Assembly (NCBI GenBank): GCA_009784275.1
Contig: WRCA01000003.1
Coordinates: 38,817 to 70,816 of the forward strand
Length of the DNA: 32,000 nt
DNA from: Alphaproteobacteria bacterium
GTDB taxonomy: Bacteria > Pseudomonadota > Alphaproteobacteria > Rs-D84
Direction: 5' to 3'
Part shown: one piece after another, positions 7,433 through 31,485 of the stretch
Layout of the letters: every line of letters starts with the position of its first letter
How positions within the stretch are numbered: position 1 is the first letter of the stretch
Translations under genes and position numbers: made by a program
Notes under the pieces: generated by a model
Database searches by the model: none
What the model saw: only the letters and a program-made list of their open reading frames with translations
Told to the model about the DNA's origin: nothing

Positions 7433-8275
7433 ATGAATCATATAGACATTTTTTTAGAGATGTTATCGGCGGAAAAAGGACGCGGTGCAAAGACACTGGA
7501 AGCATACGGCCGCGACTTGCGCATGACCATGGAAGCGGTTGGCGATTTGGGATCAGCAACGACATCGCAGCTGCAAAATTATCTGGCGGGATTGAATGAA
7601 AAACCGGCGAGCATCGCAAGAAAAACCAGCGCTTTGCGCCAGTTTTATAAGTTTTTGAACTTGGAAAAAATAATCTCTGAAAACCCTGCCCTGGGCTTGG
7701 AATTACCGAAAAGACAGAAAAAATTACCGAAATTTTTAACCACGGAAGAGATAGAGTTGTTGATATCGAACGCGGGCGATGTCCGGAATTCCTTGCGTCT
7801 GCGGGCTATGCTGGAATTGCTGTACGCATCGGGTTTGCGGGTATCGGAATTATGCGAATTGCCGCGTTCCGCAATATTGGGCGATAAGTTATTAATACAT
7901 GGTAAAGGCGCGAAAGAACGCATCGTGCCAATGCACACTGGTGCACAGATCGCATTGGAAAAATGGCTGGAAAATTGCCCCGCTTCTAAATATGTATTCC
8001 CCAGCAGTGGCAAAAGCGGCCATATAACGCGCGATGGATTCTTTAAAATCCTGAAGAAATGCGCGGTTTTATCGGGAATTTCGCCAGAAAGGATCAGCCC
8101 GCACGTGCTGCGTCATTCGTTTGCGTCACACTTGTTGGCGGGCGGAGCAAACCTGCGCGCGATACAAATGATGCTGGGGCACGAAGACATCTCTACCACG
8201 CAAATTTATACGCATGTAATGCCAGAAAAGCTGAAAAATGCGGTATATGAACATCATCCATTGGCCAAGAAATGA
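7433..8275 (+). CDS. xerD: site-specific tyrosine recombinase XerD
   Basis: ORF 7349..8275 starts at a GTG. ATG 7433 (MNHIDIFLEMLSAEKGRGAKTLEAYGRDL) matches the usual Xer N-terminus. Catalytic region: ELLYASGLRVSELCEL, HVLRHSFASHLLAGGANLRAIQMMLGHEDISTTQIYTHV. Confidence 0.85.
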   Translation: MNHIDIFLEMLSAEKGRGAKTLEAYGRDLRMTMEAVGDLGSATTSQLQNYLAGLNEKPASIARKTSALRQFYKFLNLEKIISENPALGLELPKRQKKLPKFLTTEEIELLISNAGDVRNSLRLRAMLELLYASGLRVSELCELPRSAILGDKLLIHGKGAKERIVPMHTGAQIALEKWLENCPASKYVFPSSGKSGHITRDGFFKILKKCAVLSGISPERISPHVLRHSFASHLLAGGANLRAIQMMLGHEDISTTQIYTHVMPEKLKNAVYEHHPLAKK

Positions 8276-8781
8276 TAAAGAAATGCGATTTTAAAGGTTG
8301 TGATAAAGCGGGCGTATGTCGTGCCCCTAAATCGCGCGACTTGAAAGAGTATTACTATTTTTGTAAAGAACACGCGGCGGAATATAATAAGAATTGGAAT
8401 TATTACGCCGGCATGACAACGGATGAAATAGAGGAAGACTGGGAACGTGAAACCTTTGGAATCAGCGATAAAGAGCGTGCCGCGCGGGACAAAGCCAATG
8501 CGGAATATGTTACATTTCTGGAGAATTTTCTGACCGGGCGTGATAGTTTTGATCGCGGGGCATCCCAGCGCAAGCCGTCAGTTGCATCAAGAACAGTATC
8601 ATCGGCGTTTGCGGTATTGGACCTGGCGCCGACGGCAACCTGGCGAGAGGTTCAGTCGAAATACAGGGCCCTGGCGAAGAAGTTCCATCCGGACACGGCA
8701 AAGAATAAAAAGTCCGCGGCGGCGGAATTCACCCGCATTTCCACAGCATACGGGGAATTGAAGAAGTTTTTTAAGAAATAA
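8272..8781 (+). CDS. J-domain (DnaJ-like) protein with N-terminal Cys-containing conserved region
   Basis: 169 aa. The C-terminal J domain carries HPD (AFAVLDLAPTATWREVQSKYRALAKKFHPDTAKNK). The N-terminus (CDFKGCDKAGVCRAPKSRDLKEYYYFCKEHAAEYNKNWNYY) matches a small J-protein family I recall as widespread in Alphaproteobacteria. Its ATG overlaps the xerD stop (ATGA at 8272..8275). Confidence 0.85.
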   Translation: MIKKCDFKGCDKAGVCRAPKSRDLKEYYYFCKEHAAEYNKNWNYYAGMTTDEIEEDWERETFGISDKERAARDKANAEYVTFLENFLTGRDSFDRGASQRKPSVASRTVSSAFAVLDLAPTATWREVQSKYRALAKKFHPDTAKNKKSAAAEFTRISTAYGELKKFFKK

Positions 8782-8806
8782 AAACCGCCGTTTCCGGCGG
8801 TTTTTA
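8781..8806. terminator. bidirectional rho-independent terminator between convergent genes
   Basis: AAAACCGCCG-TTTC-CGGCGGTTTTTATT. The 7 bp GC-rich stem (8784..8790 / 8795..8801) is flanked by an A-run on one side and a T-run on the other. It lies exactly between the stop of the J-domain gene (8781) and the stop of the convergent giant gene (8807). Confidence 0.7.
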
Positions 8807-11599
8807 TTAGAACTCCATACCTACACGATATCCAACCTCCGTAGTGTCACCTGCCAGACGGCATTTTATCTTGCTTCCGATGCTGTCATACCATTCTTTA
8901 TATGCTGCATCTTGCTTGTCTTTTTCAAGCTGGTTCGCCTTTTCTTTTATGGCATTGGCTGTTTCAACACCACCCCATATTCCACCGGCAGTTCCCAACG
9001 CACCCAATGTAATCGCACCGGCAGTACCCCAAGCTTTATGCTGCTTTTCACGATCCGACTTAACACCGGCTTCTCGTGCAGTCTTATCTTTCGTCAGTGC
9101 ACTAATCATTCCTCTGATTTTTCCGGCAGTGTTAGCGGCATCATCATCTGATTGCTCTGATTGCTCTTCGCAAGTATAACCAGAGAATTCTCTACCATCA
9201 AGATTGCACATAGCTGGTTCTTTCGCGATTACCTTACTTTTTTTGCCATATTTTTCAGAGCACCAATCCAAATCACGTGCCACAGCATCTGCATTAGTTA
9301 GGCATTGGTTAATTTCTCGCATTTTTTCGTCATTCTTCTGCGCTTTTTTATCACCACTACTGGCGATCTTGTCACCCAGCGTATATCCGCCCCAGGCTCC
9401 CAATCCACCGCCTGCCAGGCCAGCAATGACCCCTACCAGGGAACCAACCTTGTTGGCACGTGCATTATCCTTTTTCACTTCATCTTTTGACCTAGCTTCA
9501 GATTCACGAATTTTTGCTTCTATGTTATCCAAACATGTTTCGGTTAACCATTCCCCACAACCTACAACCAAACCTACATTCTTTTCGCCCCAGAAAGAAT
9601 AGATGCAACCATCAATATTCTTTACAGGTTGATTTTTAATCAATATCGTAAGTGTAGCTTCGCGCTGGCAAGCCCCACCAAAGGTATCTTCGGTCGCTTT
9701 TCGCCTTGTTCCCTGTTTGTCGGTTTGATTCGGCAATGCAGTCCATGCATACCCTTCCCCAGCATCTTTACAAGCAGTCTTGGCTTCATTTGCTTTTCTT
9801 TCAAACATGCTTTGCACGCGCGTGCCTATATCAGCAACCAGAGTTCCAAATATATTACGTTCTTGCTCTGCGCACATTGCAATAAACTTGGCATCCGCAC
9901 TGACTGTTGCAGTGGGCAAGTCACCCAGGGAATATGTATAATTCGGGCTGCAGAATGAAAGCGTGCTGGATGATGACGATGAGGCTGACAACCAAGCATT
10001 TCGTGCGCCACTGGATGTTCCCCAAGAATCTGCACTCGCCCCCGATGATTTCTTTGCATATTCAACGTCGAAAAATTCTCTACAGCTTTTATCTTTCTTT
10101 ACTTCCAGCAAACATAATCCTTTGGCCATTTCTCCGTCAAATCCGCCATTCCAAGCCTTTCCGGTCACAACACCGTTAACAACTGTTTTGCTTTTCATGT
10201 TTTTTGCATCAATACTGGATATAAAGCAAGCGGTATAATCCGGGGCGCATTCATTTGTAACGCAATCTTCTGCCACAGTTTGGCATGCTCGGCGCATATT
10301 AGCAACCATGTCTTCATTAAACATTTCCGACAATTCTGTACTTAGTCCCGAAATCGCGCCAATAGAATCTTGTATCCAAATTTTATCCCATGCCTCCGAT
10401 GGGCTACCGCCCTTACTGACAAAGACATCCAAGCAGCTTTGATTATTTTTAATCACATTTTCGCACTGGGCGGTAATCCCCGCACCTGCTTTGCCTTTTA
10501 TGTCCACTTTGCCGGACTGAACATCTTTGGATAATCCATAACACCGCGCATAACTACCTTCGCCGCAAGCATTAACCGCACAGTTTCGCATTGCGATTTT
10601 ACAAGTATTCGCCGAAGCCAATGCTGCCGTTGCCGCCCATTCTTTTATTCTGGACTGATTCATCTTGAATCGCGCATTAACACCGGTTTCCATTATATTT
10701 CTATATACTCTGTCTATAGAACTACGGTCTATCAGATCGGCTTCTTTTGCCAATGTGCCTTCTACTACCATAAAGCATGATTCATCAGAGCCAATGGTTT
10801 CGCGGCATTGTTCCCTTAAATAGCTATTTACATTGCTGCTGCCCCAACCCAGATTTTTCATATAATTCATTATAATATTGGGATTCAAGCGCAAACCTGT
10901 TTCAGATGAATCAACTATATTCACCATATTATTGGCATCATCATTTGTAAAGCCATCAACATCGATACATTTATGCGGCGAACCGGCACATGCTTGTTTT
11001 ATACAGTCATCCGCAGTTTCGTTACAACTTTTTACAGAATTTGCCGATGCCCAGCTGTTGCCTTCTTTTATCCACATCTGCACCGGGCTGTCCCCCGCAA
11101 CTGCTATATCTTGCAAAGCCGGCGAGAACGAGCGTTTTACAACCACAGATTCTTCTTCGCAAATCGCGCGATTGGCAACAGATGAATCATCACTGGTCGT
11201 TACAGAATTTCCAAACAGCGCCTTTATTCCATCCGCAGGGCATCTAGCCAACTCGTCCTGACACAAAATTCTTTTCTTATTAAATTGCTTTATGTTAGAG
11301 CAAAGCTGAAAATTTTCTTTACAAACATCGCCGCTCCGCAAGCAGCCTTCGTATTCCCGGACGCAATCACTGGTGGAAAATCTTTTCTTCAGTGGTTCCG
11401 CGCAAGTCGCCAACAGTCCGGCATCGACCGAAACCGTGCCGATTGTTCGAATGCCCGAAAGCCCTGCCAAGCTGGGCAGCCGCGCCGCCGTCGCAGGACG
11501 TGCAGTTGGTGTCCCAACATAGCTGACAGCCCCCGCATCACCAAACGAAATGACGGACGCCAACGGCAAAACAAGACCAACAATTAATGCTTTTTTCAT
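8807..11599 (-). CDS. giant cysteine-rich secreted/envelope protein (hypothetical)
   Basis: ORF 8807..11635. I prefer ATG 11599 (MKKALIVGLVLPLASVISFGDAGA, a signal peptide, with an AGGTG SD 5 nt upstream). I count about 38 Cys, including three copies of a C-x6-C-x4-C-x6/7-C module. Two glycine-zipper-like hydrophobic segments lie near the C-terminus (VGSLVGVIAGLAGGGLGAWGG; AWGTAGAITLGALGTAGGIWGG). The protein ends GYRVGMEF. Confidence 0.85.
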   Translation of the reverse strand: MKKALIVGLVLPLASVISFGDAGAVSYVGTPTARPATAARLPSLAGLSGIRTIGTVSVDAGLLATCAEPLKKRFSTSDCVREYEGCLRSGDVCKENFQLCSNIKQFNKKRILCQDELARCPADGIKALFGNSVTTSDDSSVANRAICEEESVVVKRSFSPALQDIAVAGDSPVQMWIKEGNSWASANSVKSCNETADDCIKQACAGSPHKCIDVDGFTNDDANNMVNIVDSSETGLRLNPNIIMNYMKNLGWGSSNVNSYLREQCRETIGSDESCFMVVEGTLAKEADLIDRSSIDRVYRNIMETGVNARFKMNQSRIKEWAATAALASANTCKIAMRNCAVNACGEGSYARCYGLSKDVQSGKVDIKGKAGAGITAQCENVIKNNQSCLDVFVSKGGSPSEAWDKIWIQDSIGAISGLSTELSEMFNEDMVANMRRACQTVAEDCVTNECAPDYTACFISSIDAKNMKSKTVVNGVVTGKAWNGGFDGEMAKGLCLLEVKKDKSCREFFDVEYAKKSSGASADSWGTSSGARNAWLSASSSSSSTLSFCSPNYTYSLGDLPTATVSADAKFIAMCAEQERNIFGTLVADIGTRVQSMFERKANEAKTACKDAGEGYAWTALPNQTDKQGTRRKATEDTFGGACQREATLTILIKNQPVKNIDGCIYSFWGEKNVGLVVGCGEWLTETCLDNIEAKIRESEARSKDEVKKDNARANKVGSLVGVIAGLAGGGLGAWGGYTLGDKIASSGDKKAQKNDEKMREINQCLTNADAVARDLDWCSEKYGKKSKVIAKEPAMCNLDGREFSGYTCEEQSEQSDDDAANTAGKIRGMISALTKDKTAREAGVKSDREKQHKAWGTAGAITLGALGTAGGIWGGVETANAIKEKANQLEKDKQDAAYKEWYDSIGSKIKCRLAGDTTEVGYRVGMEF

Positions 11600-11602
11600 T
11601 CT

Positions 11603-11630
11603 CACACCTACATTTTCATACCTACATTTT
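11603..11630. repeat. tandem 14 bp direct repeat immediately upstream of the giant gene start
   Basis: Plus strand: CACACCTACATTTT (11603..11616) and CATACCTACATTTT (11617..11630), 13/14 identical. In gene orientation these read AAAATGTAGGTATG AAAATGTAGGTGTG AGA ATG. Confidence 0.6.
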
Positions 11631-11668
11631 ATCATAAAAAGATATATAGAAAAAGGGAAAAAGAGAAA

Positions 11669-13432
11669 TTATTTCATCAAACTGTGAACAGCTGCGGCGA
11701 AGTCTGGCGCTTTGGCCAAATAGTTGCCCGATGTCAACATATCCGCGCCCGCATCCCAGCACTGCTTTGCTGTCTCTGGATTTATTCCGCCATCAACGTT
11801 GATTCTAAATTTCAGATTATGCTTCTTTCTGGTATTTGCAAGAGCTGCGACTCGTGACAAAGCCGCCGGCAAAAATTTCTGCCCGCTTGGCCCCGGCACC
11901 ACCGACATAACCGAAACATCGTCCAAGTCCCGCAAGATTGGCGCGATTATATCAATCGGACTTTCGGGGTGCAGCGCGATTCCTGCGCGCTTTCCTGCAG
12001 CCTTTATTTCTCGCAACGCACGCAATACTCCATTTGTACCGCTGGATACGATTATTGTGTCCGCGCCAGCGGCAATTGCCTCAGCCGCCCACTGGGCCGG
12101 ATTCTCGGTCATCAAGTGCACATACAGATGCGCCGTAGTATGCGCGCGAATAAATTTTATCTCGTCAATTCCGCCGAGTATTTTTTCCACATAAAATCCA
12201 TCCATCACCTCTACATGAATTATGCCGATGCCGGCATTTGCGAATTTCGCATAAGTCGCAGCATTGCGCATATCGAAAGACTGGGTGCTGGGCATTATTG
12301 GAATAATTCCGCGATGACGCTTCTTGGTTCTAACTTTGAAGAAAGCAATCACAGCATCGAAAAACTTTTCCCATTTCTTGCGGCGCGCAAGATAGCCTTG
12401 TATTCTGGCGGTTTCGCGATTCCATATAAAATCAGCGAGGGCATTTACCGCCGCAAACGGCCCCAAGTTTTCAACCTTTACGCCAAAAGCTTGCTCTATG
12501 GTATCTGCTAATCCTGGAATACCGGAACCTCCGCCGCTGATAAAGATTTTCTGAACGCGATATTTTTCCAAAGCGGGACTTAATGAAGTCTCTACGACAC
12601 TCATCATCCTGCGGAATATACCCATCGCATTATCGCTGATGTCAAATCTTGAAAATTCATATCTTGCGTCTGCCGGGGTAAACCTGTCCATTTCCGTGGT
12701 TATTAACGTCATCCCTGCGATTTTTAATCTTTCCGCTTCCGACATTGATATATGAAAAGCCTCTGACAATTTCCTGGTAATATCAATCCCGCCAATATCG
12801 AACTTTTTAAGCAGCATCGGACCGCGCGCAGTCCATACTGACACAGTTGTTGATGTTGCGCCAAAATCTATGAACGCCGCAGATTCTTTTGGAGAACGAA
12901 CAGTAGACCCCATCAGAAACATAGGGTCGAAAAAGCCTTCGGATTCCAGATGTGCTTCGCGCAACGCGGATTTCGCAAATGCCATTCCCTCATTAGGATA
13001 AGAAATCGAATGGAACAGAGAATCTAAACTTTTATCAATATGTCCCACCGCGCTGGATACATTTTGAAATCCACCCAGGTCATATCGCAATGGGATGATA
13101 TGCATCGGAAAAAAATCTTCATCCCGCGGCATTATTTGCTCTAAAACATCCTGCGGAAGTATTTTATGTTCGCCGCCCCAACTTGTCTTGCGTGAAAAAA
13201 TCTCGGACCTGACATCACCGAAATTTCCCGTAACATATGCGGAATCAAAACGCGCGCCGATTTGTTCTTCCAGGCTGTCGACCGCGGATTTCACCGCATA
13301 GGCGGCGTCCATTGACTCAAAAAAAACCGTTGCCGAAGACTTTATGCGACCAAAGCTTACACGCGCGCCAACCGCACGTACGCCGGATGATCCGATATCT
13401 AAACACAGAAAAGCCCCGTCAGTCAGATTCAT
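11669..13432 (-). CDS. ftsA: cell division protein FtsA fused to a divergent ribulose-phosphate 3-epimerase-like domain
   Basis: Single 587 aa ORF. Residues ~1-370 are an FtsA-type actin fold (CLDIGSSGVRAV, FIDFGATSTTVSVW, IFISGGGSGIPGLADTIEQAFG). An amphipathic basic helix follows (RRKKWEKFFDAVIAFFKVRTKKR). The last ~210 aa are an Rpe-like TIM barrel (PSTQSFDM, HVEVMDGFYVEK, YVHLM, MSVVPGPSGQKF, NVDGGI). The gene starts 3 nt after the ftsQ stop. Confidence 0.85.
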   Translation of the reverse strand: MNLTDGAFLCLDIGSSGVRAVGARVSFGRIKSSATVFFESMDAAYAVKSAVDSLEEQIGARFDSAYVTGNFGDVRSEIFSRKTSWGGEHKILPQDVLEQIMPRDEDFFPMHIIPLRYDLGGFQNVSSAVGHIDKSLDSLFHSISYPNEGMAFAKSALREAHLESEGFFDPMFLMGSTVRSPKESAAFIDFGATSTTVSVWTARGPMLLKKFDIGGIDITRKLSEAFHISMSEAERLKIAGMTLITTEMDRFTPADARYEFSRFDISDNAMGIFRRMMSVVETSLSPALEKYRVQKIFISGGGSGIPGLADTIEQAFGVKVENLGPFAAVNALADFIWNRETARIQGYLARRKKWEKFFDAVIAFFKVRTKKRHRGIIPIMPSTQSFDMRNAATYAKFANAGIGIIHVEVMDGFYVEKILGGIDEIKFIRAHTTAHLYVHLMTENPAQWAAEAIAAGADTIIVSSGTNGVLRALREIKAAGKRAGIALHPESPIDIIAPILRDLDDVSVMSVVPGPSGQKFLPAALSRVAALANTRKKHNLKFRINVDGGINPETAKQCWDAGADMLTSGNYLAKAPDFAAAVHSLMK

Positions 13433-13435
13433 TTC

Positions 13436-14125
13436 TTATTTTAATTTCACCAGCGGACGCGAAGTATCACGCATGTCCAGCACGCGGATCTGGCGATCCA
13501 GTATTGCATTCTGCTTATGCATTTTCTCTATTTTCTTAACAGCGTCCACGAAATTTTCTTCCGGCAGCATGATGCGAATTCCACCCATCAAGAAAATATC
13601 CCAGCGCCTGTTCTCTACAAACTCCATCTTATCCGTGCGATAAAATAAATCAGGCGCGCGGCGCATTACTGTTAAAACTTCCGAAATATCCGACGGGACT
13701 TTCCCGGAAAAAACAAGAGTGCTTTGCGGGCGCGAATCCAGCTGGCGGCTGATTGGCGTCCCGTTGGAATCCAATGGATAATATTTTTCCCCGTCTGTCC
13801 AAGCCGCAACCACGACACGCATTTTCGCGCGAACCCTAATTTCACTATTTGGCATCCGGCGAACACTGGCAAGCGCAACATCCGGATCCGCCATTATTTT
13901 TGCCAAAGCATCTTCCATATCCAAGGACTTTGCCCCAGGCGCGATATCCAGCCGTCCTGCCAGCTGCCGCGCATCCCCGCCTCCGATGGCATTAACGGAT
14001 ACTTTTTTAATAGTCGACAAAACGCCACCCTGACCCATCAAAACCATAGACATCCGCACAGCGATATAAATCGCGAGCAACACGGCAAAGCCGAACATCA
14101 GCCAAAACAAGAATTTGCTTTTCAT
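13436..14125 (-). CDS. ftsQ: cell division protein FtsQ
   Basis: 229 aa with an N-terminal TM (FLFWLMFGFAVLLAIYIAV) and a POTRA-like region. The FtsQ-type C-terminus is present (RRWDIFLMGGIRIMLPEENFVDAVKKIEKMHKQNAILDRQIRVLDMRD). It lies directly upstream of ftsA. Confidence 0.85.
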   Translation of the reverse strand: MKSKFLFWLMFGFAVLLAIYIAVRMSMVLMGQGGVLSTIKKVSVNAIGGGDARQLAGRLDIAPGAKSLDMEDALAKIMADPDVALASVRRMPNSEIRVRAKMRVVVAAWTDGEKYYPLDSNGTPISRQLDSRPQSTLVFSGKVPSDISEVLTVMRRAPDLFYRTDKMEFVENRRWDIFLMGGIRIMLPEENFVDAVKKIEKMHKQNAILDRQIRVLDMRDTSRPLVKLK

Positions 14126-14166: not shown

Positions 14167-14556
14167 TTACGAAGCGCGCAGCAAATATCCCCGCCGCATC
14201 ATGCATCTGCGGTAAGCCCCGACGGATTTCGAAGAAGAATTAGGCGGCACCGACATCAGCGCGCGTTGGCCGTTCTCTCTATGCTCATTCGACTGAAAGG
14301 TCACCCATAATCCATCCCAATTCGGCATCTGCGCGGATTGATTTGGACTAAGCAGCTTTGCAACACGGGATCTGGGCATATGTGCCGGGCGCGTAATCCC
14401 CAGGCAGTTTTTGTGATCGCGCACAAATTGTTCCATGGTCACGGCATCGTTTTCCCAGTTCAGCACAGTTGCATTCTCTATAAGCCCGCTGTTTGGCGAC
14501 GCGCAACCAACCAGCAAAGGCAGAATTAAGAAGGCAAAAGGCAGAAGTTTTCTCAT
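14167..14556 (-). CDS. small lipoprotein (hypothetical)
   Basis: ORF 14167..14574. I prefer ATG 14556, giving MRKLLPFAFLILPLLVGC|ASP (signal peptide plus lipobox). The mature part has two further Cys and ends RRCMMRRGYLLRAS. Confidence 0.75.
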   Translation of the reverse strand: MRKLLPFAFLILPLLVGCASPNSGLIENATVLNWENDAVTMEQFVRDHKNCLGITRPAHMPRSRVAKLLSPNQSAQMPNWDGLWVTFQSNEHRENGQRALMSVPPNSSSKSVGAYRRCMMRRGYLLRAS

Positions 14557-14645
14557 TTGCAGGAAGTATATCAAATCCGTTAATACAATAGCAATCTGAA
14601 ATTTTTGCTCTCGCCTTTTTACTTCTGACTTTTACCTTTTTTTAG

Positions 14646-15016: not shown

Positions 15017-16330
15017 ATGAAAAAAACTTTTGCCTTTTTACTTTTGCCTTTTGCGCTGCTCTGCGCTTGCACACAAATGCAATCCCGCAACCAGCCGCAA
15101 TTCGACACTATCGAGGTTATCGAGAATGTTGTCATAGACGAACGATCTGTGCCTATATTCCCGCGCAAGGCCGCGCTGACCACGGATACCGCGCGTCGGT
15201 TTGCGATAGACTTGCCCAAACGCTGTTCGGTGGACTGGGATAATCAAACAATTTTATCCACACTTCCCGCGCAGCCGGTAGAGATTATCAGGCTGAACAA
15301 AGGCGATGACCTGCCGGAATTTGATGTTGAAAATTATTCTTTCTTGAAAAAAACCGTGCCAGATGTTTTGGAAAAATTATTAAAGGGAACCAGAATAAAA
15401 GTCGTGACGACAGAAAATATGCCGGACCTTATCAGCGGGGATATTAATTCCGGAAACTTGGCCGACGCGATAGAGCTGATCTGCAGATTGGGCAAAGTTT
15501 ATTATTCATATGACGATGCGTCGAAAGAGCTGCGCATAACCAGTCGCGGAAAATGGCTGATGAAAATGCCACAGGACGAATATGTCATAATGGCCATCAT
15601 AGATGCGATGCGCGGCGCAGAAATGCGAAGCTTGCTGACGAACTGGCAAGATAAAACTATATCGTTCGAAGGCAATTATCAAACGGAAAGAGAAGTTCGC
15701 GATATCGTGGCGGATGTTGGCTCCAAGAAATATCTGATCGCCTGGGATATGGATGTTTATCGCGTATATCCGCGAACGGACAATCCGATAATCTGGATGA
15801 ATATGCTGCCCGCGTTTGGCGAAAAGAATGTAAGAATGTCGATACCTGGGGTTGTGGGGCGCACACTTGTGGTCAGCCCGGAAATCAATACTAAAACCCT
15901 GCAAGATTTCTTGGCGCAGCAAAGTAATGTGGTACTGATTTCACAGGGAACATTTGTGATACCAAATGGTTGGCAAAGTCGATTTGATATCGGGCAATGT
16001 TCGCGCGAAGACAGACTGGAAACAGATTTGATTATCGGCGCCACTGGAAAATATGGAAATTATGCGGATATGATGAAATTGGATGCAAAGGTAGTACTAC
16101 GTACACATCGCGGTGAACTGGCGTCGTACAATGTTCCAACAACATTAGGCGACAATTATGTGATAATCGGAATCCCAACGCACAGTTTTGTAACAGATCC
16201 GGAAACATTAATCAGTCCATTCGCGGAACTAGTTATATTCATGAGCCCCAGATTAATCTCGATCATAGACCGGAACGAGCCCGCCGAGAAATTATCGGGC
16301 GATGCGTTAAGAGAGTATCTAGAGGACTAA
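15017..16330 (+). CDS. lipoprotein with STN/N0-like region and possible secretin-like C-terminal domain (hypothetical)
   Basis: 437 aa starting MKKTFAFLLLPFALLCAC|TQ (lipobox). The middle region VPDVLEKLLKGTRIKVVTTENMPDLISGDINSGNLADAIELICRLGKVYYSYDDASKELRIT resembles secretin/TonB short N-terminal domains. The C-terminus (LAQQSNVVLISQGTFVIPNGWQSRFDIGQ ... NVPTTLGDNYVIIGIP ... ELVIFMSPRLI) resembles the secretin core pattern. The CDS call is solid; the function is tentative. Confidence 0.85.
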   Translation: MKKTFAFLLLPFALLCACTQMQSRNQPQFDTIEVIENVVIDERSVPIFPRKAALTTDTARRFAIDLPKRCSVDWDNQTILSTLPAQPVEIIRLNKGDDLPEFDVENYSFLKKTVPDVLEKLLKGTRIKVVTTENMPDLISGDINSGNLADAIELICRLGKVYYSYDDASKELRITSRGKWLMKMPQDEYVIMAIIDAMRGAEMRSLLTNWQDKTISFEGNYQTEREVRDIVADVGSKKYLIAWDMDVYRVYPRTDNPIIWMNMLPAFGEKNVRMSIPGVVGRTLVVSPEINTKTLQDFLAQQSNVVLISQGTFVIPNGWQSRFDIGQCSREDRLETDLIIGATGKYGNYADMMKLDAKVVLRTHRGELASYNVPTTLGDNYVIIGIPTHSFVTDPETLISPFAELVIFMSPRLISIIDRNEPAEKLSGDALREYLED

Positions 16331-22177: not shown

Positions 22178-22630
22178 TTACATCCTATTGAAATATAATA
22201 CATTTTTGAGCGGCCATTGTTTCATAAACGCACGAACTTCTTTTTCAAGCACTGGATCAAGGCCCTTATCAAACTCACTTTTCCTAACCCACATATAGAC
22301 AATTGCATCGAAACCGTCTTTGTCATAAGGAAAAATATAAAAACAGCCCAGACATACTGATTCATCCGGCGACATAACAGTATATGCGAACGAAGTTCTT
22401 TCCTGGAATTCCTTTTGATGCCAGCCCAGATCTATCAAATCCTGTTCTAATGAAATATCAGCCTTTGGCCATGTAGATCCCGGCCCAAATACACCTTGCA
22501 AATGGTCGATAGAAGTGACAACCGCATCATAATCTTTCACGACATCATTTATTGTTAGCATCCTTGCCTTGATTTTATCGGCAAGAAATCCATCTGGAAT
22601 AATAAAGTTGTCAGGTATAAATTTTTTCAT
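22178..22630 (-). CDS. hypothetical protein, possibly GNAT-like acetyltransferase family
   Basis: 150 aa clean ORF, tightly packed between rsmI (4 nt overlap) and engB (2 nt gap). The pattern DYDAVVTSIDHLQGVFGPGSTWP...DLGWHQKEFQERTSFAYTVMSPDESVCLGCFYIFP resembles a family I recall being annotated as GNAT-like. The function is tentative. Confidence 0.75.
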   Translation of the reverse strand: MKKFIPDNFIIPDGFLADKIKARMLTINDVVKDYDAVVTSIDHLQGVFGPGSTWPKADISLEQDLIDLGWHQKEFQERTSFAYTVMSPDESVCLGCFYIFPYDKDGFDAIVYMWVRKSEFDKGLDPVLEKEVRAFMKQWPLKNVLYFNRM

Positions 22631-23427
22631 CTTACGCCCTTTAACACTTTCTCATATGCTTCCGATTTTGATAGACCCGTTCGGACGGAAATTTCAGCGG
22701 CGGCGGTTTTAGTATTCTGCGCACCTTTTACAACATCACGCACAATTTCGCCGATTTCTTCGTCAGACATTTTTGTTTCGGGTGCTGGTTCTATTACAAT
22801 TACGATTTCTCCGCGCCATTCTTTTCGTGGCATTAATTCCGCCGGATATCCTATAACTGTCTCTTCATGAATCTTTGTAATCTCTCGCACTATCGCAACG
22901 CGACGCTCTGGCATGATACGCGCAAGAATCGCCAAGGTATCCGAAACCCGCGCCGGGCTTTCATAGTAAATTATCGTATGGCGAATTTTATTGTCTTCCC
23001 GCAAATGCTTTTCATCTTTGAAAAATCCAAGAAAACTAAACCTGTCGGTTGGAAATCCAGACAACGCCAGCGCAGAAATCGCGGCCACAGGCCCCGGAAT
23101 TACAAACACAGGCAAACTTGCTGCGCGGCATTCACGTACCAACCTGAATCCTGGATCGCTGATGGTAGGCATCCCAGAATCGCTGACAATTGCAATCGCC
23201 ATGCCATTTTGAATCTTTGCAACCAGGTCGCTTGCGACTTCACGCTCGTTATGTTCATGGAATGCCATGCGCTTGGTTTTTATATTAAAATGTGCCGCCA
23301 ATTTACCGAATACACGGGTATCTTCGCAAGCAATCAAATCGACATCACGCAGAACCTCTATCGCCCGCGGCGACATATCCGACAGGTTCCCTATCGGCGT
23401 CCCTACGATATACAAACCGATTTGCAT
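22627..23427 (-). CDS. rsmI: 16S rRNA (cytidine1402-2'-O)-methyltransferase RsmI
   Basis: ORF 22627..23454. I prefer ATG 23427 (MQIGLYIVGTPIGNLSDMSPRAIEVLRDVDLIACEDTR), which has an AAGGA SD 6 nt upstream. It is divergent from an lpoA-like gene, as in the E. coli rsmI(yraL)/lpoA(yraM) pair. Confidence 0.92.
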   Translation of the reverse strand: MQIGLYIVGTPIGNLSDMSPRAIEVLRDVDLIACEDTRVFGKLAAHFNIKTKRMAFHEHNEREVASDLVAKIQNGMAIAIVSDSGMPTISDPGFRLVRECRAASLPVFVIPGPVAAISALALSGFPTDRFSFLGFFKDEKHLREDNKIRHTIIYYESPARVSDTLAILARIMPERRVAIVREITKIHEETVIGYPAELMPRKEWRGEIVIVIEPAPETKMSDEEIGEIVRDVVKGAQNTKTAAAEISVRTGLSKSEAYEKVLKGVR

Positions 23428-23472
23428 TGCGAATCCTTTGTGGTTATAATACACGAATGTAAGGGAATTTCA

Positions 23473-25035
23473 ATGTTTATAAAAAAGATTTTTATGGCCT
23501 GCTGCCTGCTGTTTGCGCTCTGTTCCTGCGGCACCCAGCAACAGTGGGGCACCCGCTATGGCCAAGGACCGGTGGGTGACGCGATAGAGCTGGATGCGCC
23601 ATCCCGCATATATGGCGGCGAAAGGAATATAGCGGTAATACTGCCGGATGGGGCCCTAGGCAAATCTGTGCGAACCGCTGTTGAAATGGCATTTATCCAA
23701 AAGCGCGCAAGCAATGTAAATGTTAATTTTATGGATTTGTCCGGCAGTGCTGATACACGCATGATCGCGATGGAAAACGCATTGAATCAAAGCCCGGACT
23801 TGATTATTGGACCTATATTTGCGGAAGACGCGGACATATTGCGTAATCTTAAATCATCGCGACTGCCGGTATTGTCTTTTACCTCTGACGCGACAGCATT
23901 GGGCAACGGAATTATGACCATGTCATTAATGCCTGCGCAAAGCGTCGAAACAATCGTTCGCCGCATGCCGACTGAAAACAAGCGGGAATTGCTGATCCTT
24001 GCGCCAGATAACGTATCCGGATATATTATGGGAAATGCGGCGCTCGATTCCGCATCAATCTATGGTATGCGTATTGCCGGATTGTATTATTATAAATCGG
24101 GGAATATGGATAGCATGAAGCATGCCGCCGAAGACGCCACTATGTTCAACGCCCGCAGCAATGCCAATACCCGTGCAAAAGAAATCCTTTCAGATATCCT
24201 TATGAAAAAGGAAGTCTCTGCCCCTGAAAAAGCTTTTGTATCCGCACAATTGGATGAAAGGAATAAGTCCGATACAATCGGCGATGTTCCGTATGATGCG
24301 GTCCTGTTCTTGGGGAACGCGGCGGACTCCAAGGCATTAGGGTCTTTCTTGCGGTATTATGACGCACCGGCAAAAAGGGTAAAGTTTTATGGAACCGCCA
24401 TGTGGGATAATGATGCGATGTTTCGCGATATGACATTCAGCGGCGCCAGCTATGCGGCGCTGCCCGCGATTTCGCCAGAGTTTGCAAATGCTTACCGCGA
24501 GATTACCGATACCGATCCGGAAAGAATAAGCTCCATGGGATATGACGCGGCAATGCTGGCAATACGCGCATTGGGGTCGGAAAATAGCGAGATGGAATTC
24601 TTGATGGATCCGTCGGGATTTCGCGGACTGGACGGACTAATAAGACTACGCCCGAATGGCACATCGGAACGCGCTTTGCAGGTAATGACCTTGGACGCCA
24701 GCGGAGCACCTAAAATAGCGGCATATGCGGCGACGAATTTTATAAAACCGCTTTATATGGTGACGGGCCAGAACAGATCAAGACCTTCGGAAATAAGATT
24801 GACCGCAGGGGTTAATCCTTTGGATTATATAAAATTGCCGGCCAGCGTGCGCGGACAGTACAGCGCGAAGACATACAGACAAAACGCTGACGTGCCACGC
24901 CCGATGCAAACCCAAACCGAAGAAGTAACAATATTGCCAGAAGACGATTCAGAACCGATAATCGATACAGAGTTCGAACCAATCGAATTAGAATCCGTCA
25001 GTAGAGTTTTGGTGGATGAGGTGCAGGTTAGATAA
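23473..25035 (+). CDS. penicillin-binding protein activator LpoA-like lipoprotein (periplasmic-binding-protein type I fold)
   Basis: ORF 22867..25035. Its 5' 606 nt are antisense to rsmI, so I use in-frame ATG 23473 (MFIKKIFMACCLLFALCSC|G, lipobox; AAGGGA SD). PBP-like motifs are present: IAVILPDGALGKSVRTAVEMAF, PDLIIGPIF. An acidic C-terminal tail follows. Confidence 0.85.
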   Translation: MFIKKIFMACCLLFALCSCGTQQQWGTRYGQGPVGDAIELDAPSRIYGGERNIAVILPDGALGKSVRTAVEMAFIQKRASNVNVNFMDLSGSADTRMIAMENALNQSPDLIIGPIFAEDADILRNLKSSRLPVLSFTSDATALGNGIMTMSLMPAQSVETIVRRMPTENKRELLILAPDNVSGYIMGNAALDSASIYGMRIAGLYYYKSGNMDSMKHAAEDATMFNARSNANTRAKEILSDILMKKEVSAPEKAFVSAQLDERNKSDTIGDVPYDAVLFLGNAADSKALGSFLRYYDAPAKRVKFYGTAMWDNDAMFRDMTFSGASYAALPAISPEFANAYREITDTDPERISSMGYDAAMLAIRALGSENSEMEFLMDPSGFRGLDGLIRLRPNGTSERALQVMTLDASGAPKIAAYAATNFIKPLYMVTGQNRSRPSEIRLTAGVNPLDYIKLPASVRGQYSAKTYRQNADVPRPMQTQTEEVTILPEDDSEPIIDTEFEPIELESVSRVLVDEVQVR

Positions 25036-27455: not shown

Positions 27456-28772
27456 CTATTGTACACCGTATTTGATCATATTCAAGCCATTATATTTTTG
27501 GCGAACTCGATTCTGTATATCATTCAAAGCCCTGACAAAGTCGGAAACTGTCGCATTGCTGTTTGCTGAAACTTTTCCCATTATATCTTCGGTGACGGTC
27601 TTTGATGCTTTTGATTCGGATTTAACGGCATCCTTCATCATCTTATTTAATATCGCAAAAGAAGAATCATGAAATACCGCGGTATCAGATCGAAAATCCC
27701 AAAAATATCCGGGGTTTTCAGAATCCTCTACTTTTTCGGATACGGATAGCCTGGGTGCGATCGTACCCGCATAGCCAACTGTTATGCTGCGCGCAGTTAC
27801 GCGTCCGCGAACCATATCTATGGTCTGATTAACCCTTAATAATGCCGGTTTTTCCGAACCGCTTATGCTTAATCCCGATAGAGTCAAATCCCGCACCCAC
27901 AATTCTCCCGCATCCAGCCTGGAAAGTCGCGCAGTCGAATTCAGATACAGCTCTGTCCCGACTTCCATACTTCTTGAATCTGATGTTAGCGAGCCGGATA
28001 CAAGCGCTTCGCCAGACACGGCGAAAAAAGTATCCCAATTCGGACGCGGGCTGATCTGAACCTTGCGCGCATTGATAAAACCAGCCTTCATAATCTCTTT
28101 AAATTCTGCATTGTACGCATCAACCAAACCTGCTTCTTTTATATTGTATCCGCCCAAGGAAAGATCTGACAACATAGTGGCATCCGCAGAATCGGGAGAT
28201 GGCAATCGCCACAAGAAATCGCCCCCGGATAAAATAGTGCCAGTGCTTTCCACTATCGCGTCTTTGCCGAATTTTACATCAAATACATTTGTCTTGCTGC
28301 GCCAAGTACCGAATGCACCGTATGCTTCGGATTTTTCGACAAAGCCTGTGGATTCTCCGCCCAACTCTGCAATTTCACGCGTACGAACAGGGGAAATATT
28401 TTCGGAATCAAATACCACCAATCCCGACAGAACTGCACGACCGCCGCGATCCCGGGATTTGAGTATGCGCGCTTGGAATCTGTTATATTCCTTGGGCAAT
28501 GTGCCAAATTCTTTTAAGTCGCTTATTCGGACACGCGTTATGGTGGCACCGATCGGGGTCAGTAATTCCCGCTTATGCAGCTCCATATATTTTTCCAAAG
28601 CATCGCGCACCGATCCGATATCCCGCGCTATGCGAACATTCTCGGCACGTATGGTGCGGGTATCCATTTCACGCAATACAAACGGCAATGCAGCGGCGGC
28701 AATCGCAAGCGACAGCAGAATTTCTACCATCATGCTGCCACGTTGATAAAAATTATTTTTTCTCGCCCTCAT
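27456..28772 (-). CDS. large type IV prepilin-like protein, paralogue 3 of 3 (possible PilV-like minor pilin/adhesin)
   Basis: ORF 27456..28784 (TTG). I prefer ATG 28772, which overlaps the upstream stop in an ATGA and has a GGAAG SD. The N-terminus is MRARKNNFYQRG|SMMVEILLSLAIAAAALPF, with Glu at +5 after the putative cleavage Gly. 438 aa, no Cys. Confidence 0.8.
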   Translation of the reverse strand: MRARKNNFYQRGSMMVEILLSLAIAAAALPFVLREMDTRTIRAENVRIARDIGSVRDALEKYMELHKRELLTPIGATITRVRISDLKEFGTLPKEYNRFQARILKSRDRGGRAVLSGLVVFDSENISPVRTREIAELGGESTGFVEKSEAYGAFGTWRSKTNVFDVKFGKDAIVESTGTILSGGDFLWRLPSPDSADATMLSDLSLGGYNIKEAGLVDAYNAEFKEIMKAGFINARKVQISPRPNWDTFFAVSGEALVSGSLTSDSRSMEVGTELYLNSTARLSRLDAGELWVRDLTLSGLSISGSEKPALLRVNQTIDMVRGRVTARSITVGYAGTIAPRLSVSEKVEDSENPGYFWDFRSDTAVFHDSSFAILNKMMKDAVKSESKASKTVTEDIMGKVSANSNATVSDFVRALNDIQNRVRQKYNGLNMIKYGVQ

Positions 28773-30016
28773 TTCGTCTTCCAATCGCTCGATATTATTG
28801 GCCCAAATTCTTCAATTTTCGGCGCATCTAATGTTGTGCTTAAATCATCGCTTGAAATCTTTCGCAGAACGATCCCGGAAAATTTCGGACCACGTTCCGA
28901 AGGAAAAATCCACGCGCCCAGCTTAATCGGGTTCATACTGGTGGAATACATAAGCTCGCTGGATATGGTCATGCCAAATCCTCCGGCGAAAAATAATTGT
29001 TCTGTACTGACAAATGGAGTCGCCAAAACATGCGCGCGAATTCCCGCAAAACCTGACATAGTTCGAATGCTGTCCGATTTCAGTACCAAGTCGCGCTGGA
29101 CATGTACAGGCCCCGTAACATTAACGCTGTCGACAACCACATCGCCCTTTTGCGACCAAACAGTGCCGGTTGCCCCGGTGAATTTCTTTGCGACGATCCT
29201 CCTGAATCCGCTGATATCGCCACTTACACGGACAGACGCCAGCGTGGCTTTCGAAGGATCGATAGATGCGCCATCGGGGAAATAAGCATCCAACGCACGA
29301 ACCTCTGGCGTTTCGGCAAACCAGATATTCGCATTATTTGCCTTTATGTTTTTCGCAAAGACCGTGCCAACACCCACCATATTCTTCTTTGCCATATTCA
29401 AATCGCGGAACATAGTGTTCATGTCAGGGTCATCAAGGTAAGTCCTGTGCAAATACCTGCTCGCTTCATCTTCGCCCAGAATATCTGAAATTCTGAAAAT
29501 CAAATCGCCGGGTGAAAAAAGATCTGAAGAAATGCTCCATCCTGCGGGACTTACTGCTTCGTTGTTTAACGCGACTATGGCTGCATCGGACCCAATATTC
29601 TTCGCAATGTTTAAAACCCTAACTTCTGAAATATTTTCGGGCCTAAAAGCCAGATAAGCATTAATCATCGCGCCACCCTTGGCCGCGCGCTTTTCTATAA
29701 ACCCGGCATATGGATGTAGCATCCGTCCGGATATACTATTTTCCGAATTCTGTTCGCGAATTAAATCAACCTCGCCCTCATCGAATTCCACTTCGGCATT
29801 ATCGGGCCAGTCGGCTTGATTCCTGCGAACATAAGCCATTATAGGATCGCTCCATTCGGATATTCTCCTTGCTTCCGATGCGTCTACTATGCTGTTGCTC
29901 ATCTCCATCACGCCGTTATAAGCGAATGGCAAAATCGCGCCAATGATGGCGATTGCCAGCAGAACTTCCATCAGTCCTGCTCCGCGCTGCTGCCTCTGAA
30001 AATTACGAGCACTCAT
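28769..30016 (-). CDS. large type IV prepilin-like protein, paralogue 2 of 3
   Basis: ORF 28769..30046 (GTG). I prefer ATG 30016, which overlaps the upstream TGA stop (ATGA, 30016..30013). The N-terminus is MSARNFQRQQRG|AGLMEVLLAIAIIGAILPF, with Glu at +5. 415 aa, no Cys. Confidence 0.8.
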   Translation of the reverse strand: MSARNFQRQQRGAGLMEVLLAIAIIGAILPFAYNGVMEMSNSIVDASEARRISEWSDPIMAYVRRNQADWPDNAEVEFDEGEVDLIREQNSENSISGRMLHPYAGFIEKRAAKGGAMINAYLAFRPENISEVRVLNIAKNIGSDAAIVALNNEAVSPAGWSISSDLFSPGDLIFRISDILGEDEASRYLHRTYLDDPDMNTMFRDLNMAKKNMVGVGTVFAKNIKANNANIWFAETPEVRALDAYFPDGASIDPSKATLASVRVSGDISGFRRIVAKKFTGATGTVWSQKGDVVVDSVNVTGPVHVQRDLVLKSDSIRTMSGFAGIRAHVLATPFVSTEQLFFAGGFGMTISSELMYSTSMNPIKLGAWIFPSERGPKFSGIVLRKISSDDLSTTLDAPKIEEFGPIISSDWKTK

Positions 30017-31485
30017 TTGCAATTTCGACGACCTTCCTCTATGCACTGTTTCATATTTATCCGACGTTCCAAACGCTGCCAGAAAATATATTGGCAGACA
30101 ATATTTTGAGCGACTGATTTTTGTTCATATGACGGCATGCCGGGCAAACTGGTTATGATTGTTTTGCAGCTAACTGTCGTACTGTCATCGCCTTCTGGAT
30201 TTTTTAATATATCTATCTTGTCATTATTGATGGAGTCCAGCAAAATATCCGGCAGAACAGAAACTCCGCTGGGCCGAATATCAAGAAGAATTGCGCCAGT
30301 ATCGCCGGACGCCAGAGCGCTGGAAATCTGATCGCGCAATGTCAGATAAGCCGCAGATATAGTCCTGGTTTCTATACCACTTCTCGCGGAATAACTTATT
30401 TCGTTCTGGTCGATAAAAACATCTTGTCCGCGCGAAGCATTTATAAATCCTGATATTTCCATCATCTCGGTATTCAGCGACACATTGTTTAAAATAACAT
30501 CCCCACCAACATCCCAGTCATAAGAACCGGTGAACCCGGCGCGCCCCACTGCCATGGTTAAAGAGTTCAATGATACACTCTCTGCCTCTATACTTCCGGG
30601 CAGGCCATATTTAAAAATAGAATAAGTCGATACCAGTTTCGAACGCAGGTCTCCGCGCGTTATATTCAAAGCGCCAGAACCTTCTCGGGATTGAAATACC
30701 GCCTTGCTAACGGACAGCAGTTCTATCTTGTTCTTGAACCTGCGGTCGGTGCTGGAACCGGAAATCGCCAAGGTTCCAAAATCTGCAAAATCAACTTCTG
30801 CATTCTTTGCCGAAAAAGAAGATATATTTTTTATCGTATAACCGCCCATATCCAAATCGGTATGAAATCTGTTTCTTTCGGGATCGTTTGCATTGCGCCT
30901 GATTAGTTCGGAGAAATCATCGTCTGACGGGATTAGAACATAAAAGGCTTCCTTATCGGGCTTGATTTTAAAGTCTTTCAGATTCTTCTCCCACCCGCCT
31001 ATGCCATGCAGAATACCATCCTTGCCCGAATCCGCGGCATCAGGCCCGATACGAGCCATCAGCTCACGCCGCTTTTGCGGGGACAGATTCCCGCCACGAA
31101 TGACCAGCAGCACCAAAGCTTCGCCATTGTCGTTTTTCGACGCGATCATTGATATCTTCTGCCCTTGCGCGGTCTGGGGGACAAAGCCCAGCGGTAAACC
31201 AAAGGGTTCCAGCAAGTCGGAGAGTGCTTCGCCATTCAGGGAAGATACGCCATATTTGATATTATCTTTGTTGAATCGCACAAAAACGCGGGCAGCACGA
31301 GCAGCATTATTTATATGCTGGGCAGAAACAGAAAGCCCCAGATCACTCTTTCGGGTCGCCAGCTTTTGCGCCAGCATAGGCATAAAGGCCATTACCAGGG
31401 CGATTGCCAGCAGCGCCTGCAATAAAAAATTTCCGCGGCTCTGTTCTGACAAAACAACCCCTCCTACACTCACCATCATAGCCAT
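30013..31485 (-). CDS. large type IV prepilin-like protein, paralogue 1 of 3 (Gln at +5; C-terminal Cys pairs)
   Basis: 490 aa from ATG 31485. The N-terminus is MAMMVSVGGVVLSEQSRG|NFLLQALLAIALVMAFMP. An alternative start is TTG 31452, preceded by a perfect AGGAGG (31465..31460) at 7 nt, which would give a 7 aa leader, MSEQSRG. Four Cys lie in the last ~55 residues. Confidence 0.8.
   Translation of the reverse strand: MAMMVSVGGVVLSEQSRGNFLLQALLAIALVMAFMPMLAQKLATRKSDLGLSVSAQHINNAARAARVFVRFNKDNIKYGVSSLNGEALSDLLEPFGLPLGFVPQTAQGQKISMIASKNDNGEALVLLVIRGGNLSPQKRRELMARIGPDAADSGKDGILHGIGGWEKNLKDFKIKPDKEAFYVLIPSDDDFSELIRRNANDPERNRFHTDLDMGGYTIKNISSFSAKNAEVDFADFGTLAISGSSTDRRFKNKIELLSVSKAVFQSREGSGALNITRGDLRSKLVSTYSIFKYGLPGSIEAESVSLNSLTMAVGRAGFTGSYDWDVGGDVILNNVSLNTEMMEISGFINASRGQDVFIDQNEISYSARSGIETRTISAAYLTLRDQISSALASGDTGAILLDIRPSGVSVLPDILLDSINNDKIDILKNPEGDDSTTVSCKTIITSLPGMPSYEQKSVAQNIVCQYIFWQRLERRINMKQCIEEGRRNCK

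Follow-up and report, generated by a model that had tools for sequence, protein, structure and literature searches.

This analysis concerns a gene in which the cell division protein FtsA is joined in frame to a ribulose-phosphate 3-epimerase (Rpe). The gene lies in a 32,000-nucleotide stretch of DNA from an alphaproteobacterium of the Rs-D84 lineage (assembly GCA_009784275.1, contig WRCA01000003.1, forward-strand positions 38,817 to 70,816). The whole of this stretch is called the window here, and window coordinates are counted from its first letter. The ftsA::rpe gene occupies 11669..13432 on the minus strand and is a single uninterrupted open reading frame (ORF) of 587 codons plus stop, with an ATG start. 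A first-pass annotation of the window had described such a fusion of 587 amino acids, and this is confirmed: the Pfam families FtsA (PF14450, residues 186-325, 46 bits against a cut-off of 31.8) and Ribul_P_3_epim (PF00834, residues 380-571, 148 bits, E 2.7e-43, cut-off 21.1) match the window protein in one frame. Three parts can be distinguished, all encoded on the minus strand. Residues 1-340 (12413..13432) form the actin-fold core of FtsA, as judged from Foldseek ranking and ATP-binding motifs. Residues 341-376 (12305..12412) form a junction that is modelled by AlphaFold2 (AF2) as a helix at 341-368 followed by a disordered polybasic stretch. Residues 377-587 (11672..12304) form a complete Rpe barrel of the triosephosphate isomerase (TIM) type, as judged from PF00834, Foldseek and the Streptococcus pyogenes Rpe structure 2FLI. 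The division gene ftsQ (13436..14125, minus strand; Pfam FtsQ_DivIB_C, E 1.7e-11) precedes the fusion, and its stop lies 3 nt before the fusion ATG.

In bacteria the division ring is tethered to the membrane by FtsA, a conserved protein whose targeting helix normally lies at the extreme C-terminus. The AF2 model of the window protein has two globular domains and a mean predicted local distance difference test (pLDDT) of 91.1. When the model was compared with the PDB by Foldseek, the first 16 matches were all FtsA chains (7q6i, 3wt0, 3wqt, 1e4g, 4a2a, 7q6d), whose template modelling (TM) scores, taken on the target, range from 0.67 to 0.75 across some 380 columns, while the pilus protein PilM (5eox) came at rank 48 with a TM score of 0.52. 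The ATP-binding motifs are LDIGSSG (D12, G14), FIDFGA (D189, G191) and ISGGGSG (G300-302). Among 120 homologues, no variation occurs at D12, G14 or G300, and conservation reaches at least 90% at D189, G191, G301 and G302; these homologues are the listed database matches to the window protein, and all counts out of 120 refer to them. By sequence alone, the PilM structure 3jc8 (E 1.5e-9) outscores FtsA 7q6f (E 2.3e-5), and Pfam PilM_2 also matches the window protein. The NCBIfam ftsA equivalog TIGR01174 gives 47.8 bits, well under its cut-off of 175.85. Pfam SHS2_FTSA is found in several relatives and is absent from the window protein's own matches. Despite the better PilM sequence score, the N-terminal part is assigned to FtsA because of its fold and synteny. 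A PilM identity was rejected on the fold ranking, the ftsQ synteny and the neighbours, which are ftsQ and lolC/D-like genes and not pilN, pilO, pilP or pilQ.

The junction contains the amphipathic, membrane-targeting-like segment RRKKWEKFFDAVIAFFKVRTKKR at residues 350-372 (12317..12385, minus strand), recognized by its hydrophobic moment. Along the helix at 341-368 the pLDDT drops from about 90 to 60, and it falls below 50 at residues 368-373. The best 15-mer of the junction, KKWEKFFDAVIAFFK, has a hydrophobic moment (muH) of 0.59 against a protein-wide mean of 0.26 ± 0.13; the tail of Escherichia coli FtsA gives 0.57. Across the homologues the mean best muH of the junction is 0.64, its net charge is +7 to +13 and its length is nearly fixed, while its mean pairwise identity is just 33%. 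Such conservation of character over sequence would be expected for a lipid-binding helix. The earlier proposal of an FtsA-type membrane-targeting helix at the junction is thus supported by the AF2 helix, the muH and the basic charge, and the segment would probably bind the membrane. The helix ends about as far beyond the core, which finishes near residue 340, as it does in E. coli FtsA. Given the properties of the helix and this distance, the N-terminal 372 residues look like a complete FtsA with its tail. The barrel starts nearly at its own N-terminus, as first noted, because I377 aligns with residue 4 of 2FLI. A complete FtsA with its tail, followed directly by a complete Rpe, fits the suggested loss of the ftsA stop codon and spacer. 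Independent translation of Rpe from an internal start was considered and is unlikely: M380, the sole nearby Met, is Leu in 46 of the 120 homologues, and no Shine-Dalgarno-like sequence lies ahead of it.

Distribution and age of the fusion

The homologues cover 98-100% of the query, are 579-602 amino acids long and share 47-84% identity with it. They come from NCBI, JGI, ENA and Logan assemblies, on contigs of up to 848 kb, and the closest relative among the matches listed is P0002 (84% identity). When each GTDB species was represented by a single genome, 352 genomes proved to encode a relative, and the best 80 of these 352 matches all span query residues 1 to 583-587. Related genomic loci were also compared; 83 were examined first, and there were 89 by the time of the window-plus-loci alignment (90 sequences including the window). 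The FtsA and Rpe halves share a frame without an intervening stop in all 83 loci (ORF of 587-604 amino acids), and in each of them ftsQ is the gene immediately upstream, on the same strand and with a median gap of 8 nt. The gene pair ftsI-ftsQ precedes the fusion in locus L084; one divergent member, P0134, sits after ftsI-ftsQ. Relatives therefore share the fusion, and an artefact of assembly or frameshift is ruled out by the 83 single-frame loci and by the coverage of the 120 homologues.

The carriers are recorded as Candidatus Enterousia or as metagenome-assembled genomes (MAGs) of Alphaproteobacteria or Rickettsiales from ruminant, human, chicken and termite guts. One carrier genome is a closed chromosome of 958,618 bp. 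Five loci with ftsQ-ftsA::rpe (L005, L006, L008, L027, L069) belong to GTDB representatives whose records are titled 'uncultured Muribaculaceae bacterium'; the taxonomy labels on the source records of these five MAGs are probably wrong. Enterousia has been placed in the order Rs-D84, with genomes of less than 1 Mb and a coding density of about 90% (2025, PMC12306168). Rs-D84 is described as having incomplete glycolysis and no respiration, and a partner-dependent lifestyle has been proposed; its genomes were reported to carry the genes of the non-oxidative pentose-phosphate pathway apart from transaldolase, and the published reconstruction counted Rpe in most of them (PMC12306168).

When residues 1-376 were searched against 1.84 billion representatives, 17 matches fell below 1e-30. 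Most matches stronger than about 1e-14 are 540-623 amino acids long, and the shorter ones are fragment-like. Ordinary FtsA proteins of 400-440 amino acids first appear near E 1e-13, at 24-28% identity. Among ten divergent representatives, Ribul_P_3_epim was found in the 8 that are full-length, most of which also carry SHS2_FTSA and/or FtsA; P0122 (487 amino acids) has a partial Rpe match only and P0121 (430 amino acids) has none, and both are apparently truncated. Deep members that are merely 26-31% identical in the FtsA part are still FtsA-Rpe fusions, and split FtsA and Rpe genes were never seen among the loci and proteins examined. The fusion is thus old, and the stop-loss event is ancient and clade-wide rather than recent or a product of assembly. 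No paper describing an FtsA-Rpe fusion, or a link between FtsA and Rpe, was found in the searchable literature, and the fusion is unmentioned in the article on Rs-D84 metabolism, taken without its supplements (PMC12306168). Databases name the fusion proteins only 'ribulose-phosphate 3-epimerase' or 'hypothetical'. As these names cover Rpe or nothing, automated reconstructions may count Rpe in these genomes and miss FtsA.

The epimerase barrel

The structure predicted for the Rpe-like part is a complete (β/α)8 Rpe barrel. Its Foldseek match to 2FLI has a TM score of 0.92 and a root-mean-square deviation of 1.4 Å, and the two are 35% identical over 209-211 residues (2FLI 4-214, E 1.7e-38). The NCBIfam Rpe subfamily model NF004076 scores 167.7, just above its cut-off of 165. 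Rpe needs two His and two Asp, which bind the metal and of which the Asp residues act as acid and base, and three Met that cushion the intermediate; the enzymes are dimers or hexamers (PMC9978339). In the fusion family H406, H439, D547 and M441 are kept in 120 of 120 homologues, D408 and M410 in 119 and M509 in 118. The exception at position 408 is the window protein itself, in which the codon at 12209..12211 (minus strand) reads GAG and gives Glu at the site of the first catalytic, metal-binding Asp. The window protein hence has the metal set H406-E408-H439-D547, with three identical residues and one conservative replacement, and retains M410, M441 and M509, so that E408 is the sole change among the seven catalytic and cushion residues. 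In the alignment of 90 sequences, 87 carry H-D-H-D, the window carries H-E-H-D and two loci of one lineage carry Y-T-H-C.

The first-pass annotation had treated the change of Asp to Glu as the chief catalytic departure and had raised the possibility of a degenerate barrel. The change turns out to be private to the window sequence (one of 120 homologues and one of 90 aligned sequences); judged from these alignments, it is either a conservative replacement confined to this one protein or a base error, and the family does not share it. Degeneracy of the window barrel is not borne out either, as H-D-H-D and the three Met occur family-wide and Rpe is the most conserved part of the protein, with a mean pairwise identity of 70%; the FtsA core has 54% and the junction 33%. 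At 76 highly conserved columns the window Rpe domain has 3 deviations, all of them conservative, where the 95th percentile of the family is 4. Relaxed constraint on this domain was looked for and not seen.

The motifs quoted in the first-pass annotation are all present in the window protein: HVEVMDG at residues 406-412, YVEK at 414-417, YVHLM at 437-441, PGPSGQ at 513-518 and VDGG at 546-549, besides RRKKWEKFFDAVIAFFKVRTKKR at 350-372. VDGG is kept in the window, as stated earlier, and in the family. Of the motifs called non-canonical, YVEK and PGPSGQ do reflect a remodelling, which is family-wide and affects conserved, non-catalytic positions, whereas the replacement at position 408 belongs to the window alone. 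The canonical reference comprised the 57 positions at which four canonical Rpe structures have the same residue, and the family consensus differs at 16 of them. The changed positions include F414Y, P416D, N417R, D437H, H463S, F515A, G516A and E545S. The motif FVPN has become YV(D/E)(R/K) throughout the family (YVEK in the window), and PGFGGQ has become PGA(A/G/S)GQ (PGPSGQ in the window). The phosphate loop AG(S/T) reads SGS in the family and SGN in the window protein. For the Leishmania enzyme, the list of active-site residues includes the Phe and Gly of the PGFGG loop (PMC8756792). A published role for the Pro-Asn of FVPN was not found in the two papers searched. In terms of the alignment, the first shell of the family Rpe is kept and the second shell is remodelled, and normal Rpe chemistry is most likely for the barrel.

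One very AT-rich sublineage has lost the catalytic residues of Rpe as well as the ATP-binding motifs of FtsA. Its doubly 'dead' fusion copies, recognized by motif loss, lie at 8001..9770 in loci L087 and L088 and at 5001..6773 in L090. The proteins P0133 (589 amino acids) and P0270 (590 amino acids) are 75% identical, their loci have 25% GC and their genes 20% GC, and they share the ftsQ ... tsaE-uvrB synteny of other Rs-D84 loci. At the four catalytic positions of the barrel they carry Y-T-H-C; a gapless alignment of 209 residues gives the losses as H406Y, D408T, D547C and G549D, together with the phosphate loop. Their FtsA part has D12S, D189N, G191E and GGG changed to GSN or GSD with a deletion of two residues. 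The whole architecture is retained, including the basic amphipathic junction. Pairwise ratios of nonsynonymous to synonymous substitution (dN/dS, Nei-Gojobori) are 0.20 for the barrel (81% amino acid identity), 0.36 for the FtsA part (73%) and 0.29 for the fusion overall, all from this one pair of sequences with genes of extreme base composition. AF2 models both folds for P0133 with a pLDDT of 89.8, from an input alignment in which catalytic relatives predominate. Degeneration is also seen in P0129, which has N-D-N-Y and a deleted loop. Because the sublineage that has lost catalysis keeps its barrel under purifying selection, the barrel would be needed beyond catalysis, and from these sequences it seems to have a structural role as well. 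The earlier idea that a degenerate barrel was recruited as a new FtsA domain agrees with the dead barrel kept in P0133 and P0270, but not with the barrel of the window, which is not degenerate.

Neighbouring genes

The gap of 3 nt makes it probable that ftsQ and the fusion gene are co-transcribed and translationally coupled. The window contains no ftsZ and neither a second rpe nor a second ftsA; ftsZ is likewise missing from the 10 kb around the fusion in every related locus, and a second rpe or ftsA from the same distance in the 83 related loci. No ddl lies upstream in the window or the annotated loci. The cluster of division and cell-wall genes is fragmented in this clade; only ftsQ-ftsA::rpe remain together, with ftsI before them in L084. 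Genes for LptF/G, LpxC and LpxK are present in related loci.

Starting 33 nt downstream of the fusion gene is an ORF of 942 amino acids (8807..11635, minus strand). It has a signal-peptide-like start, is very rich in Cys and has Gly-rich hydrophobic stretches near its C-terminus; no Pfam family matches it. A homologue occurs in just 10 of the 83 related loci, such as a gene of 920 amino acids in L003, and other relatives have tsaE-uvrB in its place. Two lipoprotein-like ORFs, at 15017..16330 (plus strand, 437 amino acids) and 14167..14574 (minus strand, 135 amino acids), are likewise without a Pfam match. Similar ORFs recur in L001, L003 and L087, of about 435-444 amino acids beside a lolC/E-like permease and of about 126-128 amino acids before ftsQ. 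This recurrence of size and position suggests that they are conserved, clade-specific envelope proteins.

Three large ORFs at 27456..31485 (minus strand; 442, 425 and 490 amino acids) give only faint pilin-like signals (E 0.031 for the N_methyl motif and 1.2e-4 for Shufflon_N, neither of which reaches its cut-off). They are candidate surface proteins of the type IV pilin-like or pseudopilin kind, in a genome said to depend on contact with partner cells. An ORF of the tetrapyrrole-methylase family (22627..23454, minus strand, 275 amino acids) overlaps an ORF similar to LppC or a periplasmic-binding protein (22867..25035, plus strand, 722 amino acids) by about 590 nt. The LppC-like gene of L001 encodes 544 amino acids and has no overlap, so the true start of the LppC-like gene in the window is probably further downstream.

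Interpretation and known systems

We favour, with a probability of roughly 0.6, the reading that the fusion is a genuine, ancient and clade-wide bifunctional protein of gut Alphaproteobacteria with reduced genomes (Rs-D84, Candidatus Enterousia and relatives). Its architecture, conservation, folds, motif content and synteny are directly supported. Residues 1-340 would be the FtsA of the cell, which is actin-like, binds ATP and ties the FtsZ ring to the membrane. Residues 341-376 would be the former tail of FtsA, lying along the cytoplasmic membrane on its inner side, where it would serve as both anchor and linker. Residues 377-587, to judge from their conservation, would still interconvert ribulose-5-phosphate and xylulose-5-phosphate in a truncated non-oxidative pentose-phosphate pathway, and the enzyme would thereby be held at the membrane and the divisome. 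The barrel may also be a structural part of FtsA, possibly through dimer or hexamer contacts of the Rpe type. More speculatively, in a cell without upper glycolysis Rpe would stand between imported pentose phosphates and the precursors of 3-deoxy-D-manno-octulosonic acid (Kdo) and amino sugars for lipopolysaccharide (LPS) and peptidoglycan, and tethering it to FtsA could couple precursor supply to division. As background rather than precedent, E. coli cells with rpe deleted are small and grow slowly, and in pentose-phosphate mutants the frequency of Z-rings is no longer coupled to growth rate (PMC5825171).

Several observations weigh against this reading. The predicted TM score of the AF2 model is 0.61, so the mutual placement of the two domains is not confidently predicted. 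The helix is not universal, because four deep members of the family (P0137, P0138, P0143, P0148) have short basic Pro/Gly linkers and no amphipathic junction helix; a C-terminal membrane helix was sought in these four and none was found. The barrel scores 161 with the rpe equivalog TIGR01163, under its cut-off of 212.6, the family consensus departs from canonical Rpe at the 16 positions given above, and E408 could cripple catalysis in the window protein. To these is added the single, compositionally extreme sequence pair behind the dN/dS values.

Some of these points feed other explanations. The barrel might perform no epimerisation here and be only a structural or oligomerisation domain, for instance one that clusters FtsA through Rpe dimer or hexamer contacts, as Rpe enzymes are dimeric or hexameric (PMC9978339). 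E408 replaces the first acid/base Asp, the phosphate-binding SGS is SGN and PGFGGQ is PGPSGQ in the window, the second shell is remodelled throughout the family, and P0133/P0270 and P0129 set the precedent of a domain that persists after its catalytic residues are lost. We nevertheless consider this unlikely for the window protein, in which a conservative Asp-to-Glu change is the only one among seven key residues, P0002 and 118 other homologues have Asp, and the three conservative deviations at 76 conserved columns give no sign of relaxed constraint. It is also improbable, in our judgement, that the barrel is an active epimerase for another sugar phosphate or with another metal, one that may feed an envelope-precursor pathway at the membrane. 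The co-ordinated family changes P416D, N417R, D437H, H463S, E545S, F515A and G516A would suit it, as would the place of the PGFGG Phe and Gly in the Leishmania active site (PMC8756792) and the 133 bits that a D-allulose-6-phosphate epimerase model scores on the barrel beside the low TIGR01163 score. Because of the remodelled positions and that score, substrate or metal preference may differ. On the other hand, the best matches by sequence and by structure are all bona fide Rpe, the first-shell catalytic residues are unchanged, and the published reconstruction counts Rpe in most Rs-D84 genomes.

A neutral 'Rosetta-stone' fusion, in which adjacent essential genes merged during genome compaction and the halves work independently with no functional meaning in the tether, would be in keeping with genomes of less than 1 Mb at about 90% coding density (PMC12306168). 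It would also be in keeping with a simple loss of a stop codon, as a complete FtsA and a complete Rpe have only the tail between them. This is very unlikely given that the fusion persists down to 26-31% identity in the FtsA part and was never seen split; moreover, purifying selection on the barrel where catalysis is lost is hard to explain for a mere enzyme. That the fusion is a chimera of assembly or frameshift, or that its N-terminal half is a PilM-type pilus protein, has a practically negligible probability. The better sequence score of PilM, the PilM_2 match and the pilin-like genes elsewhere in the window are the points in its favour. Against them stand 83 loci, together with over 120 protein clusters from NCBI, JGI, ENA and Logan, in which the fusion was assembled independently, as well as 16 FtsA chains at the head of the fold ranking with PilM far below, a position always after ftsQ (and after ftsI-ftsQ in L084), and the detection of SHS2_FTSA in relatives.

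A further and rather doubtful suggestion is that the barrel, besides being an enzyme at the membrane, is a ligand-sensing module of FtsA, such that pentose-phosphate occupancy or the dimer/hexamer state would control FtsA oligomerisation or membrane engagement. If so, division in these partner-dependent bacteria would proceed only with a supply of imported sugar-phosphate precursors of LPS and peptidoglycan, and the doubly 'dead' P0133 lineage would be an end state in which the scaffold function alone is left. If the fused Rpe is the only Rpe of the cell, every molecule of this enzyme would be at the membrane or divisome, and carbon metabolism would be hard-wired to division. The clade, with 352 species-level genomes that encode a relative, includes bacteria of human and livestock guts. 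The series within the family, from active enzyme through remodelled second shell to dead but conserved barrel, could illustrate how an enzyme turns into a structural domain.

The families of the two domains are well known. What appears to be new is the covalent link between a divisome protein and a metabolic enzyme, with a putative membrane-targeting helix that has become internal. Canonical FtsA (E. coli, Thermotoga maritima, Vibrio maritimus; 1e4g, 4a2a, 7q6f) likewise has the actin fold with a 1C (SHS2) subdomain. It also shares with the fusion the ATP-binding motifs, a gene position directly after ftsQ and a basic amphipathic helix past the core, spaced from it much as the membrane-targeting sequence is in E. 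coli. The FtsA part of the fusion differs in being merely 14-17% identical to the solved structures, its helix is internal rather than C-terminal and is followed by an enzyme domain of 211 residues, and ftsZ does not lie downstream of the gene. Canonical Rpe (S. pyogenes 2FLI, Synechocystis 1TQJ, human 3OVP) is the same full-length (β/α)8 barrel, and it has in common with the family the His-Asp-His-Asp set, the three Met and the Gly-Ser phosphate loop; VDGG is common to the family and the window. In contrast to canonical Rpe, the family is fused to FtsA, carries the changes in FVPN and PGFGGQ along with D437H, H463S and E545S, and scores under the rpe equivalog cut-off, while Glu at the first catalytic Asp sets apart the window protein alone. 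To our knowledge, model bacteria link carbon metabolism to division only through reversible moonlighting interactions. Bacillus subtilis UgtP, E. coli OpgH and Caulobacter KidO and GdhZ also connect an enzyme of carbon metabolism, or an enzyme-like protein, to the FtsZ/FtsA machinery. These are separate proteins that bind FtsZ reversibly, whereas in the fusion a pentose-phosphate enzyme is attached covalently and permanently, and to FtsA.

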